Virus record (IMG/VR): IMGVR_UViG_2974594478_000001
Coordinates: 1-64,000 of that record
Length of the DNA: 64,000 nt
Strand: one strand, 5' to 3'
Source: a virus
Lineage: Duplodnaviria; Caudoviricetes
The stretch's first letter is position 1; each line of letters begins with the position of its first letter. The notes below the pieces were generated by a model. It had not been told where the DNA came from. It made no database searches and worked only from the letters and a program-made list of their open reading frames with translations. A program made the position numbers and the translations under genes. Shown here piece by piece: positions 10,854 to 29,501 of this stretch.

Positions 10854-12062
10854 ATGCTTCAACAGTTCACTGGTAAAGAGTACCTAGGTATCGACATCGC
10901 CAATAACTTTGGCTTGGATAAGCTGAATTGGGATGATCGTCTAGGATGGTTCGAGTCTAATGAATCCCAGCTTGATTCCCTCATTAAGCAAGCTGATGAA
11001 CCTGCACTCTTCTTTGCTGGTGTCCAAGCATGGAAGAAGGCAAAGAGAGGGGAATCAATAACATATCCCATCTCACTGGATGCAACCTGCTCAGGTATCC
11101 AGATTCTAGCTGCTCTCACTGGAGATAGGAAAGCAGCACAACTTTGTAATGTTGTGGACACTGGTAAGCGTGAGGATGCGTATAAATCCATCTATCTGGA
11201 TATGGTCGAGAAGGCTGGAGATACTGCTAAGATCGACCGAAAACAAACAAAACGGGCCATAATGACCTCGTTTTATGGAAGTACAGCCCAACCAAAGAAT
11301 GTCTTTGGTGAAGGTCTTCTACTCGATATCTTCTACGAGACGATGAAGGAACAAGCTCCCGGAGCTTGGGAACTCAATGAGACCATGCTGGCTCTCTGGA
11401 ATCCAGAAGCCTATTCCAATGACTGGATTCTTCCAGACAACTTCCATGTCCATGTGAAGGTGATGAACACCAAGAAGGAGAATGTTCATTTCCTCAACAA
11501 GCCTTACGAGGTGAGTTACACAGTTAATGAACCAATGGAAGGTGGAAGAAGCCTTGGAGCTAATATGACTCACTCTGTCGATGGCATGATCGTCAGGGAA
11601 ATGACTCGTCGTTGCATGTATGATCCAAAGAGAATTATGTATGCACTGATGGTCATTGAAGGGAAAACCAAGCTTTATGATGCAACTACCAGAGTTCAAG
11701 ACCATGAAATGGTTGAGCTTCTCTGGAATCACTATCAGAAGAGTGGATTCCTATCTGCTCGTATTCTGGATCATATCAACCCCATCAACATGTTCTTAGT
11801 AGATCGAGTTGAGATCTTTGATCTTATCAACTCACTGCCTAAGAAACCTTTCAACCTGATCAGCATCCATGATTGCTTCAGGTGCCTACCCAACTATGGT
11901 AATGACCTTCGCAAGCAGTACAATCTGCTTCTCTCTCAAATCGCCAAGAGTGACCTTCTGTCTTACCTCATCTCTCAGATCATCCATCGTGATGTGAAGA
12001 TTGGTAAGCTGGATGATAATCTCTGGAAAGACATCTTGGAGACCAACTATGCGCTATCCTAA
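10854..12062 (+). CDS. RNA polymerase II subunit 2 (N4 gp16-like)
   Basis: LDATCSGIQ (motif A), RKQTKRAIMTSFYGS (motif B), NMTHSVDG, SIHDCF (motif C). Confidence 0.95.
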   Translation: MLQQFTGKEYLGIDIANNFGLDKLNWDDRLGWFESNESQLDSLIKQADEPALFFAGVQAWKKAKRGESITYPISLDATCSGIQILAALTGDRKAAQLCNVVDTGKREDAYKSIYLDMVEKAGDTAKIDRKQTKRAIMTSFYGSTAQPKNVFGEGLLLDIFYETMKEQAPGAWELNETMLALWNPEAYSNDWILPDNFHVHVKVMNTKKENVHFLNKPYEVSYTVNEPMEGGRSLGANMTHSVDGMIVREMTRRCMYDPKRIMYALMVIEGKTKLYDATTRVQDHEMVELLWNHYQKSGFLSARILDHINPINMFLVDRVEIFDLINSLPKKPFNLISIHDCFRCLPNYGNDLRKQYNLLLSQIAKSDLLSYLISQIIHRDVKIGKLDDNLWKDILETNYALS

Positions 12063-12438
12063 AGGCAAATCTCACATTATCCATGAATATGCTGAAGCTC
12101 TCGGCATTCCTGTTGTCGATATTCCTCTTTCCAAATTAGAAGAAGAATATGAAGACCAACTCCCTGAATGGGCGCAGAGGAAAGCTAACCGGGAAGAGCT
12201 TCAGATCTTCCAACAACTCGTCACTCTGAATCCTAAAGCCAGAGGCAATGCCACCATCCTGAAAATCAAGTACCTCTTCAGGTATACAGAGGTACAATTT
12301 ATTGTCGGTACAGATGCTGGTAACATCATGAAGCTCACACTTAATGAACTCTTGCTTATGTATGAACCGGGGGATTATATCCTTAAAGGTTTCCCTAATC
12401 CCAAGCTTTATGAAAAACTTGAGGAGATGAACGAATGA
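12049..12438 (+). CDS. Hypothetical protein
   Basis: ATG 12049 overlaps the end of RNAP2, in frame with track ORF 12001-12438. Confidence 0.5.
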   Translation: MRYPKGKSHIIHEYAEALGIPVVDIPLSKLEEEYEDQLPEWAQRKANREELQIFQQLVTLNPKARGNATILKIKYLFRYTEVQFIVGTDAGNIMKLTLNELLLMYEPGDYILKGFPNPKLYEKLEEMNE

Positions 12439-12457
12439 TTGAATCTAAGTAGTCAAT

Positions 12458-12496
12458 ACCCTCTATGTCCTTCGGGATGTAGAGGGTTTATTTTTT
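12458..12496 (+). terminator. Rho-independent terminator (UUCG loop)
   Basis: ACCCTCTATGTCC-TTCG-GGATGTAGAGGGT then TTATTTTTT. Confidence 0.9.
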
Positions 12497-12561
12497 CCTG
12501 TATAACCTGTAGTTTCCTCTTGTTTTAAAACACATTGGTTCGAACCAAAGAAGGAACTACA

Positions 12562-13053
12562 ATGCCTACATTTCAAGTCGCATGGAATCCAACCACTAGA
12601 GTAGCTAAGATCCAGAAGGATGGTGCTGCTCCCGGTGCTGGATTCACTGATATTGGTGCCTTTGATCACGTTGATGATCCAGATGATCAGCTTGGTGTGG
12701 ATGAGAACCATGTGTTCTATCATCACGTCAGGGATCTGCTTTACAAGGCTACCCCAAGTGTCCAGAACATGCAGGATCTTCAGATCACTATGGTCTATGT
12801 CACTGGTGTATCCGTTGCTCCTGCTGGTCCTGTAGCTCTTGCTAACAGTGCTACCCAACAGCTTACACCAACTGTAGCTCCTGCTGATGCAGCCAATACA
12901 GATGTGCTCTATGAATCCAGCGATACAGATATCGCTACGGTCAGTGCCTCTGGTCTGGTAACAGCACATGCTACCAATGATGGTTCTGCTACCATCACGG
13001 TTACGACCAAGGATGGTGGGTTCAAGGACACTGTTATCATCAACGTCGCCTAA
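12562..13053 (+). CDS. Ig-like (Big_2) capsid decoration protein, N4 gp17-like
   Basis: C-terminal QLTPTVAPADAANTDVLYESSDTDIATVSASGLVTA...ATITVTTKDGG; located after RNAP2. Confidence 0.8.
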   Translation: MPTFQVAWNPTTRVAKIQKDGAAPGAGFTDIGAFDHVDDPDDQLGVDENHVFYHHVRDLLYKATPSVQNMQDLQITMVYVTGVSVAPAGPVALANSATQQLTPTVAPADAANTDVLYESSDTDIATVSASGLVTAHATNDGSATITVTTKDGGFKDTVIINVA

Positions 13054-13083
13054 CAATTTCCCCCAACATATCCTCACTTTTTT

Positions 13084-13115
13084 AGCCTCTCCCTCTTCTG
13101 GGAGGGGCTTTTTTC
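13084..13115 (+). terminator. Rho-independent terminator
   Basis: AGCCTCTCCC-tcttct-GGGAGGGGCT then TTTTT. Confidence 0.85.
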
Positions 13116-13138
13116 TTGTACAGCTAAAAGCAAGCCTT

Positions 13139-13310
13139 TCCTTGGTTCAGCAAGAATGAGCCAACTAACCAAGCATAGCTGGGTCGATAAAGGCGTAGCT
13201 CCAAGTTGATGGTTTAGATCCATTCACCTTTGTAGGTGCTTCGTGAGAGCGTTACAGGCAAGGCAGTCGTACAGACGACAAATGGTTAGTTCCAAATTCA
13301 GAGCCAAGGA
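13139..13310 (+). ncRNA. Candidate structured RNA/leader, family unknown
   Basis: Nested long-range stems 13139-13148/13301-13310, 13154-13157/13296-13299 and 13163-13171/13283-13291 enclose several hairpins; non-coding gap. Confidence 0.5.
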
Positions 13311-13319
13311 GAGGCTACT

Positions 13320-13568
13320 ATGGCAAGCAAGCTTGATGAGACAGAAGTCACTTTGTCCCAAACGATAGCACTCTATCGCGTCTATAACCGCAATGAACTC
13401 TATCTTTATGCAGATGGTTTCCCTCGCAGGGAACCCCAGAGTGAACAACAGAGAAGACTTACATTCTCTGAATTCTGTGAACTGGTTCAGATAGGTTCTG
13501 ACTGCATCATGGTCCCTTGGAATGGGATATGGTTGGGGATTGAAAAAGATGGATACACCCACTCCTGA
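13320..13568 (+). CDS. Conserved phage hypothetical protein
   Basis: C-terminal VPWNGIWLGIEKDGYTHS motif; AAGGAG RBS. Confidence 0.65.
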   Translation: MASKLDETEVTLSQTIALYRVYNRNELYLYADGFPRREPQSEQQRRLTFSEFCELVQIGSDCIMVPWNGIWLGIEKDGYTHS

Positions 13569-13694
13569 AATGATCATTAAGATCACTCCCAATCCAGCTT
13601 GGTCATTCCTCGATATCATAATTGAGGAACAAGCTGCTTATTACGGGCAACGTAACGCACACATCATCGACTATCTAAGAACCAGGGTAAAGAA

Positions 13695-14777
13695 ATGAGC
13701 ACCGTTCACGCATATAAAACCACTCCTCGCCAAGCTACCGAATTCATCATTGATTGCTTTGAAAGTCCCAAGCGCAATGTTGCTTTTCTTCAGGGACCAC
13801 CCGGAATTGGAAAGTCAGCAATCGTTCATGCAATTGCTGAGAATGCCAATCTGGAATTGATTGACCATCGTGTCTCAACATCCACTCCAGAAGACTTTTC
13901 TGGTCTACCAGATATGCATGGTCCTAAAGCAGTCTTCAAACCTTATGACGTATTCCCTGTAGAGGGAGATCCACTTCCTAAAGGGAAGAATGGTTGGATT
14001 CTCTTTCTGGATGAATTCAACGCTGGTAAGAAGGAAGTTCAAGCTGCTGCCTATAAAACGATTCTTGATCGTTTCGTTGGTCAGAAGAAACTCCATAAGG
14101 ATGTTTATGTTGTTGCTGCTGGTAACAGAGCAATTGACCGAGCTATCGTCAACAGCTTGTCCACTGCTATGCAGTCTCGCCTTATCCATCTAGATGTCGA
14201 ATTGAAGTTCAATGACTTCATGGAAGATGTCGCAATCAAGTATGATTGGGATAGTCGTATTATTGGCTACCTCAGTTACAAAGAAGACAAATTGATGGAC
14301 TTCAGGCCTGATCATCAGGACAAGACATTCTGTTGCCCTCGTACTTGGGACTTCATGAATGGCTTCCTCAAAGGCAAGACCTTTGAATATAAGAAGCTTC
14401 CTGATGGGACTTGGTACTATGGAATGGAGCAGAAAGCTCCTCTCTATGCAGGAACCATCACTTCTGGTGTTGCAGTGGATTTCATTCAGTTCACCAAGGT
14501 AGGACAGAATATGCCTACCATCAAACAGATCATTAATGATCCAAAGGGAACTCCTGTTCCTCAAGAACCAGAGATCCAGTGGTGTACTATTACCCACTGC
14601 ATGGAAAACACCAAGAATGATGACACCTTTGAGAAGATCACTGATTACATCAATCGTTATGATGCAAACTTTAGGACTCTCTATTTCCGGTCACTTTTTG
14701 TTCGTCAACCCGCACTTCGTCACCATCCTGTAGTGGCGAAAGCTGCCTTGGAACTTCAGAAGTACCTAAATGGTTAA
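13695..14777 (+). CDS. MoxR-like AAA+ ATPase (N4 gp24-like)
   Basis: Walker A GPPGIGKS, Walker B LFLDEFN, AAGNR, arginine finger in STAMQSRL. Confidence 0.9.
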   Translation: MSTVHAYKTTPRQATEFIIDCFESPKRNVAFLQGPPGIGKSAIVHAIAENANLELIDHRVSTSTPEDFSGLPDMHGPKAVFKPYDVFPVEGDPLPKGKNGWILFLDEFNAGKKEVQAAAYKTILDRFVGQKKLHKDVYVVAAGNRAIDRAIVNSLSTAMQSRLIHLDVELKFNDFMEDVAIKYDWDSRIIGYLSYKEDKLMDFRPDHQDKTFCCPRTWDFMNGFLKGKTFEYKKLPDGTWYYGMEQKAPLYAGTITSGVAVDFIQFTKVGQNMPTIKQIINDPKGTPVPQEPEIQWCTITHCMENTKNDDTFEKITDYINRYDANFRTLYFRSLFVRQPALRHHPVVAKAALELQKYLNG

Positions 14778-29416: not shown

Positions 29417-29441
29417 ACCTGTGGATATCCCACTGGGAACC

Positions 29442-29472
29442 AAGGAGAGGAATTGAAGCCTCTCCTTATTTT
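29442..29472 (+). terminator. Hairpin, putative terminator
   Basis: AAGGAGAGG-aattgaag-CCTCTCCTT then ATTTT. Confidence 0.55.
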
Positions 29473-29501
29473 GTCTAAGAGCATTTCTCGGAGACCCTTT
29501 C

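Follow-up and report, generated by a model that had tools for sequence, protein, structure and literature searches.

A conserved structured RNA enclosing a ribosome-binding site in a clade of rhizobial N4-like phages

Locus, homologs and distribution

The stretch of DNA analysed here, referred to as the window, comprises 64,000 nucleotides and represents the first 64 kb of a 75-kb, CheckV-complete IMG/VR virus record with the gene order of an N4-like phage (Schitoviridae). The RNA element that is the subject of this study is encoded on the plus strand at positions 13133–13316, between an Ig-like gene and the gene for an 82-aa protein (Table 1). Genes for a dCTP deaminase and thyA are located further downstream. 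The 82-aa protein belongs to a family that is encoded on at least 109 IMG/VR N4-like contigs and whose C-terminal motif is invariant. AlphaFold modelled the protein with confidence (pLDDT 91) as two helices and a small beta sheet; Foldseek returned no PDB match for this model at E≤0.001, and the small proteins flanking the element could not be assigned to any Pfam or PHROGs family.

Table 1. Features of the locus and of the RNA element (window positions).
Feature	Position	Strand	Remarks
RNAPII-like polymerase gene	10854–12062		
Ig-like gene (Pfam Big_2)	12535–13053		terminators on both sides
Intrinsic terminator of the Ig-like (Big_2) gene	13084–13116	+	
P1, 5' strand (anti-RBS strand)	13133–13148	+	13138–13143 pairs with the SD; outer pairs compensatory between lineages
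Local alternative hairpin of the nascent RNA	13142–13164	+	predicted; 13142–13148 with the RBS-like decoy 13158–13164; bases invariant
P2, 5' strand	13154–13157	+	partner 13296–13299
P3, 5' strand	13163–13171	+	partner 13283–13291
P3a, 5' strand	13178–13185	+	in invariant block; partner 13257–13264; tandem GG/AA mismatch
6-nt bulge GAUAAA between P3a and P4	13186–13191	+	invariant in all homologs
P4, 5' strand (segments a, b, c)	13192–13205	+	partner 13239–13253; closes distal three-way junction
T-arm-like hairpin	13208–13224	+	5 bp, 7-nt loop; conserved
P5, variable hairpin	13225–13238	+	abuts the 13208–13224 hairpin; 5 bp in the window
P4, 3' strand	13239–13253	+	
P3a, 3' strand	13257–13264	+	in second invariant block
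P6 hairpin	13266–13279	+	5 bp, 4-nt loop; 100% paired; 4 of 5 pairs compensatory
P3, 3' strand	13283–13291	+	
P2, 3' strand	13296–13299	+	
P1, 3' strand (ribosome-binding region)	13301–13316	+	SD 13306–13311; ATG 13320
Gene for 82-aa protein	13320–13568	+	directly after the RNA element
MoxR-type AAA ATPase gene	13695–14777		
DUF2201/VWA gene	after the MoxR-type ATPase gene		

The nearest cultured relatives of the window phage are the Rhizobium phages RHph_X2_28B and X3_15 (genus Xoxocotlavirus, host Sinorhizobium americanum), whose ATPase is 65.5% identical to that of the window. By blastn, an unannotated copy of the element was detected in the corresponding gap of both phages (79.5% identity). 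Other members were reached by searching a protein index with the neighbouring ATPase and the downstream small-protein family and then retrieving the encoding contigs, while the ATPase as a single-protein query found no relative in IMG/VR. Logan assemblies contributed all three of the further members. L128 and L280/L281 are closely related to the window phage, and L129/L130, whose ATPase shares 58% identity with that of the window, represents a third lineage. The resulting five distinct sequences from three lineages are 172–200 nt long and score 168–205 bits with our model R1. Every copy is located in the gap upstream of a MoxR-type ATPase operon.

In a tree of the ATPase, all carriers fall into one well-supported clade (100/99). 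This clade also includes an element-less subclade formed by L131, L188 and L284, plus L189, whose upstream gap was not seen. In L131, L188, L282 and L284, the syntenic gap is only 121–157 nt long and gave no match to the element. As these phages carry the same genes without it, the element is dispensable for expression of the downstream genes in sister phages. The shorter gap of the element-less relatives harbours an unrelated hairpin (7–8 bp, 3-nt loop) in front of the small-protein gene (L188:2440–2470). DNA patterns of the invariant blocks, both exact and gapped, produced chance matches only in IMG/VR, JGI metagenomes and GTDB genomes, as filtering by script and with the model showed; the best leftover match, L139, was rejected, being located inside a coding region. 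Model R1 found no match in 80 IMG/VR N4-like loci encoding the downstream small protein and nothing credible in 151 Rhizobiales genomes. In the genome of the window phage and in X2_28B a single credible copy each was obtained; a weak second match in X2_28B lies inside annotated CDSs, folds no better than shuffles (z −1.4) and was discarded. As judged by these sequence comparisons, the element appears to be vertically inherited and confined to a small clade of rhizobial N4-like phages.

The neighbourhood of the element varies between phages. The window phage, L128 and L280 are about 90% identical overall and nevertheless display local mosaicism. The 82-aa proteins of L280 and the window are only 61% identical, whereas the adjoining RNA element is about 97% identical, and the small gene at 13522–13698 of the window (58 aa) is swapped for an unrelated 77-aa gene in L128. 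In X2_28B, a beta-glucanase is encoded between the Ig-like gene and the element (L001:2752–3978), and at the same location L129 encodes a 126-aa protein with weak endolysin-like similarity (L129:1935–2315). The cargo genes thus differ between lineages, and insertions seem to favour the site immediately ahead of the element, a likely hotspot. The terminator that a preliminary description of the locus had noted ahead of the element is present, though in the window lineage only and not in L129 or X2_28B.

Fold and conservation of the element

The minimum free energy (MFE) of the plus strand was −56 kcal/mol, as compared to −41.7±3.7 kcal/mol for 200 dinucleotide shuffles (z −3.90). None of the shuffles was as good, so that the real sequence withstood the shuffle comparison proposed in the preliminary description. 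The homologs folded comparably strongly, with z values of −4.19 and −4.03 and a range of −3.9 to −4.2 over the three lineages. For the reverse complement, a z of only −0.75 was obtained; about eight G-U pairs turn into A-C mismatches on the other strand, and for this reason only the plus strand folds.

In the consensus fold, a closing rod of P1, P2 and P3, together about 25–30 bp with internal loops, leads to a three-way junction with P6. From there, P3a and the adjacent bulge connect to P4, and the distal three-way junction closed by P4 holds the T-arm-like hairpin and the variable P5. P1 comprises 16 bp in the window, 14 bp in L129 and 15 bp in X2_28B (13–16 bp overall). P2 is present in all lineages, with a different register and sequence. 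The sole substitution in P3a is a G-to-A change in L129 that converts a U-G into a U-A pair and preserves pairing. P5 consists of a different set of 5 bp in L128, and in L129 this arm gains about 24 nt and, as judged by eye, has 9 bp and an inner hairpin.

This fold agrees in its outer part with the one drawn up initially from the window alone. The outer stem (13139–13148/13301–13310), the GAAT/ATTC helix and the 9-bp stem are all present, and their nesting was reproduced by the MFE structure; the outer stem is, however, longer than the 10 bp reported at that time and extends over 16 bp in the window (13133–13148/13301–13316). The hairpins at 13208–13224 and 13266–13279 likewise occur in the sequence and are conserved. 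The remaining inner fold had to be revised. Pairing of the proposed AGCT..AGCT hairpin at 13177–13200 is limited to the window and L280, being disrupted in L128, L129 and X2_28B, and the long CCTT-TGTA..TACA-AAGG arm at 13227–13263 is absent in the other lineages; P3a, P4 and P5 take their place. The CCATT and AATGG segments, for which an alternative pairing had been suggested, hardly vary among the homologs. Taken together, the earlier observation was partly confirmed and its interpretation is supported.

Covariation was evaluated on an alignment of the five distinct sequences from three lineages, which replaced an earlier version with four sequences. The 54 consensus pairs are 95.9% paired in this alignment. 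Compensatory changes, with both sides altered, occur in 13 of the 54 pairs, as compared to one or two when the 3' partners are slid by 1–3 columns, and the observed covariation score was reached by none of 500 shuffles. P4 contributes strongly (6 of its 11 pairs are compensatory). RNAalifold, run without a supplied structure, recovered the same helices, P3a included. With five sequences the power is low, and invariant strands give no covariation signal; the support from covariation in this alignment appears good but not overwhelming. No reading frame is open in every homolog, and indels of 1–24 nt break the frames. Along with covariation over three lineages and the strand-specific fold, this bears out the claim that the gap encodes a structured RNA. 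DNA identity is 80–89% for the element as opposed to 64–76% for the flanking genes, and the adjoining spacer is unalignable. At the level of these identities, the element is the best-conserved DNA of its neighbourhood and apparently under selection.

None of the 4227 models of Rfam 15 matched the window at gathering score. At E≤10, the nearby matches fell only on the upstream terminator, and none overlapped the element in L129, X2_28B or L280. ARAGORN predicted no tRNA or tmRNA gene in the window. The YrlA model RF02553 gave matches (E 0.8–8.6) only on tRNA genes at 71–73 kb and not on the element; TROVE/Rsr (PF05731) is absent from the 75-kb phage genome, in a search in which the controls matched. 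The window phage possesses five tRNA genes at about 70.9–73.0 kb of its own genome, outside the window (Pro-TGG, Asn-GTT, Thr-TGT, Gln-TTG and Arg-TCT; L124:1494–2571 and L127:1494–1569), and X2_28B has Thr and Gln tRNAs at the matching position. The loop of the hairpin at 13208–13224 reads UUYANAU, and its fifth base, equivalent to A58, is G, U or A depending on the lineage. As this position varies, the loop does not appear to be a canonical T-loop; the canonical T-arm loop form occurs only in X2_28B. In the literature, we found no description of this RNA, and the small RNAs of LUZ7 derive from a different locus. The preliminary description had not matched the element to tRNA, common riboswitches or small ribozymes, and the lack of an Rfam 15, tRNA, tmRNA or YrlA match upholds that it fits no known family. 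Based on these results, we concluded that the element represents a genuine and previously uncatalogued family of structured RNA.

The ribosome-binding site in the closing helix

The duplex energy of P1 is −30.3 kcal/mol in the window, −27.7 kcal/mol in L129 and −25.5 kcal/mol in X2_28B. Only 1–4 nt separate P1 from the start codon, and in L129 the helix stops 1 nt before the first ATG. The Shine-Dalgarno sequence (SD) is thus paired within a conserved helix, with a same-strand start codon following immediately, an arrangement expected for an SD-sequestering cis-regulatory leader. In local partition-function folds, the SD of the gene at 13320 had an unpaired probability of 0.001, the lowest among 27 AAGGAG-plus-start sites in the window. 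True ribosome-binding sites (RBSs) elsewhere in the window displayed values from 0.17 to 0.68. Together with covariation of the outer pairs, this strengthens the earlier proposal that the outer stem hides the next RBS. The second most occluded candidate, at 29442, was dismissed as an RBS since it is actually the 5' arm of a terminator. In this strong terminator hairpin (29438–29475), the 5' arm reads like the stereotyped RBS and is complemented by the 3' arm, after which comes a U run; the 231 nt around it fold with a z of −3.9.

The SD of the gene at 13320 is embedded in the context AACCAAGGA, which is stereotyped in the window phage: 98 matches with at most one mismatch occur in the window, as compared to 17 expected. 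The 9-mer AACCAAGGA consists of the SD and four upstream bases that are not complementary to the 16S tail. Its sites are mostly found on the plus strand just before start codons, for example at 1161, 1320, 1538, 2800, 3030, 4739, 4908, 7086, 9018, 17544 and 24080, and the same context precedes the ATPase gene in the element-less L131. P1 reaches past the motif on both sides, and its outer pairs covary (C-G to U-A and U-A to C-G). Covariation of the pairs that flank the SD suggests selection on occlusion itself.

In L129 and X2_28B, the element begins 7–20 nt past the stop codon of the preceding gene, and no terminator-like structure was detected after it, which argues that the element is part of an mRNA. 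Since the 3' strand of P1 is the SD region of the next gene, a full-length transcript would present a closed RBS. In X2_28B, two unrelated small genes are inserted after the element, so that the usual gene family is now in third position; the location of the SD in P1 is kept. A scan for promoters of the sigma-70 type, as distinct from phage RNAPII promoters, found none in 12300–13900. Unlike a promoter motif, which would be expected to recur, the invariant blocks are unique in the window.

Because its closing helix buries the RBS of the next gene, the element most likely gates translation of that gene. With moderate confidence, we propose that it represents a new translational gate that acts in cis and possesses a factor-binding core, and we infer a gating as well as a docking role. 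As part of the mRNA, the element would keep the RBS of the 82-aa gene closed by means of P1, and the invariant core of P3a, bulge and junctions would serve as docking site for a protein, an RNase or a small ligand. The invariant GAUAAA bulge is a candidate binding site for such a factor. Opening could occur by removal of the 5' strand through an endonucleolytic cut in the P1–P3 rod, which would free the core as a stable RNA, by transcripts initiating within the element in the manner of phage T4 late genes, or by remodelling driven by a factor. For the window lineage, with the terminator of the separately expressed Ig-like gene preceding the element, a T4-style discrimination between readthrough and internally initiated transcripts would be attractive. 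However, internal initiation of this kind is weakened by the missing sigma-70-like promoter and by the invariant blocks not being recurrent. We also considered a kinetic trap, or anti-anti-SD switch, based on the decoy hairpin of the nascent RNA (13142–13148/13158–13164), which is predicted to form in every lineage until the true RBS is transcribed. It was rejected as a sufficient mechanism: the decoy hairpin leaves the anti-SD core at 13133–13141 free to capture the SD and so cannot keep the RBS open on its own.

Alternative readings and comparison with known systems

The main rival to the translational gate, possible but doubtful, is a processed stable ncRNA. Here, an RNase III-type cut of the P1-P2-P3 rod would free a trans-acting RNA of about 140–170 nt, for example a protein sponge or decoy, and the overlap with the RBS would be secondary. 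The core, with its two invariant strands, a bulge and two junctions, is indeed more elaborate and more conserved than occlusion of an SD requires, the coaxial rod of about 25–30 bp with internal loops resembles phage RNase III sites such as those of T7 and lambda, and sister phages can dispense with the element, a frequent trait of accessory ncRNAs. On the other hand, it has neither a promoter nor a terminator of its own, its 3' strand is always a functional-looking RBS at the correct distance from a start codon, and the covarying pairs around the SD point to selection on occlusion. A trans-acting role of a particular kind, in which the excised RNA functions as a phage-encoded global anti-RBS regulator, we regard as very unlikely. 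Over 10 nt, the 5' strand of P1 perfectly complements the stereotyped RBS context in front of about 20 plus-strand genes, many of them early; its own partner in cis contains a G-U in the window lineage. If such regulation occurred, translation of an entire class of phage genes could be silenced simultaneously by a middle-phase RNA that presents or releases its anti-RBS strand. A metabolite riboswitch of a new class that controls an operon with nucleotide-metabolism genes is unlikely as well, if less so than this global regulator. Multi-helix junctions, invariant joining strands and an SD in P1 are a typical layout of riboswitches, and genes for dCTP deaminase and thyA follow downstream. However, a P1 of 13–16 bp with about −25 to −30 kcal/mol is far beyond what could be switched, and its excessive stability renders a classical ligand-controlled P1 switch unlikely. 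The predicted 5' decoy hairpin does not help, as the anti-SD core stays free; moreover, no Rfam model matches, and the very narrow distribution, with no occurrence in 151 Rhizobiales genomes, differs from that of most metabolite riboswitches.

The other explanations are less probable still than the global regulator. N4 polymerases use structured or single-stranded DNA, and a cruciform or single-strand structure might act at the DNA level as an N4-type RNAPII promoter or loading site or as a replication signal, in agreement with the location of the element in the window lineage, where it marks an operon boundary and is preceded by a terminator. We give this little credence: the fold is strand-specific with many G-U pairs and G-U intermediates, the element lies inside an operon in two lineages, and the motif is unique in the genome. 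Slightly harder to sustain is a miniature inverted-repeat mobile element that inserted next to the RBS and supplied a replacement RBS in its terminal inverted repeat. P1 would provide the terminal inverted repeats, and presence or absence is polymorphic among related phages. Yet each genome has a single copy at an unchanging locus, the searches of 151 Rhizobiales genomes and 80 N4-like loci and the pattern scans of IMG/VR, JGI and GTDB yielded no copy, and the divergence between copies follows the phage lineages. The element is also not a simple palindrome, its internal local hairpins covary, and no target-site duplication was seen. Least probable of all is a tRNA-like or YrlA-type Y RNA mimic serving as a target of tRNA-processing enzymes or of Ro60/Rsr. 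This idea draws on the hairpin with 5 bp and a 7-nt loop, which is like a T arm and exactly so in X2_28B, and on the closed hairpin that directly follows it, as is the case in YrlA. It is opposed by the negative results with ARAGORN and the YrlA model, by the lack of TROVE/Rsr in the phage genome, by the variable A58-equivalent base (G, U or A) and by the want of a topologically correct D arm.

The structured regulatory RNAs that lytic phages encode have been poorly catalogued, and the element adds a family that is supported by covariation. N4-like phages are a classic model owing to their unusual transcription programme with three polymerases; to our knowledge, no structured regulatory RNA has been described for this family (Schitoviridae). 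The structural output of the element is clear, as one RBS is occluded by an exceptionally long helix, and its conserved branched core presumably binds something. It also illustrates that the stereotyped RBS context of a phage group can be targeted by a dedicated complementary strand. With one member residing in the isolated and culturable phage RHph_X2_28B, opening of the putative gate by a nuclease, a phage or host protein or a ligand is directly approachable.

Individual traits of the element are found in several known systems. It shares with the RNase III sites of the T7 early mRNA and the lambda N leader an intercistronic, irregular and long double-stranded stem in a polycistronic phage mRNA. 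The T7 and lambda sites, at about 60 nt, are single hairpins of irregular shape and lack a conserved branched distal domain; the structure in the lambda N leader also limits translation. YrlA (RF02553) has a long terminal stem closing a domain with a T-arm-like hairpin stacked on a closed hairpin, a resemblance offset by the model missing the element, by the absence of an Rsr/TROVE gene and a D arm and by the apparently non-canonical loop. As in the SAM-II (RF00521) and preQ1-II (RF01054) riboswitches, the SD is held in a helix of a conserved fold with invariant junction nucleotides. In contrast to these, the element shows no match to them in sequence or structure, its P1 is several times longer and more stable, and its distribution is very narrow.

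The 5' UTR of the MS2 maturation gene employs long-distance pairing with the SD, and translation is controlled by delayed RNA folding. There, too, an upstream complement pairs with the SD across a folded domain, and a small 5' hairpin competes during synthesis. However, the decoy hairpin of our element leaves the anti-SD core uncovered, which makes a kinetic window doubtful, and the element belongs to a DNA phage and occupies an internal operon position.

In the T4 genes e, soc, 49 and I-TevI, the SD and/or the start codon is held in an intramolecular helix on longer, upstream-initiated transcripts, blocking the 30S subunit (PMC3014915). The likeness to these RBS-occluding helices is that a phage SD is sequestered within the transcript by an intramolecular helix. 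The T4 structures are simple hairpins, and an internal late promoter gives rise to an open transcript, whereas the element has no internal sigma-70-like promoter. The element is also far larger and branched, with about 150 nt between its pairing strands and a conserved multi-junction domain enclosed by them.
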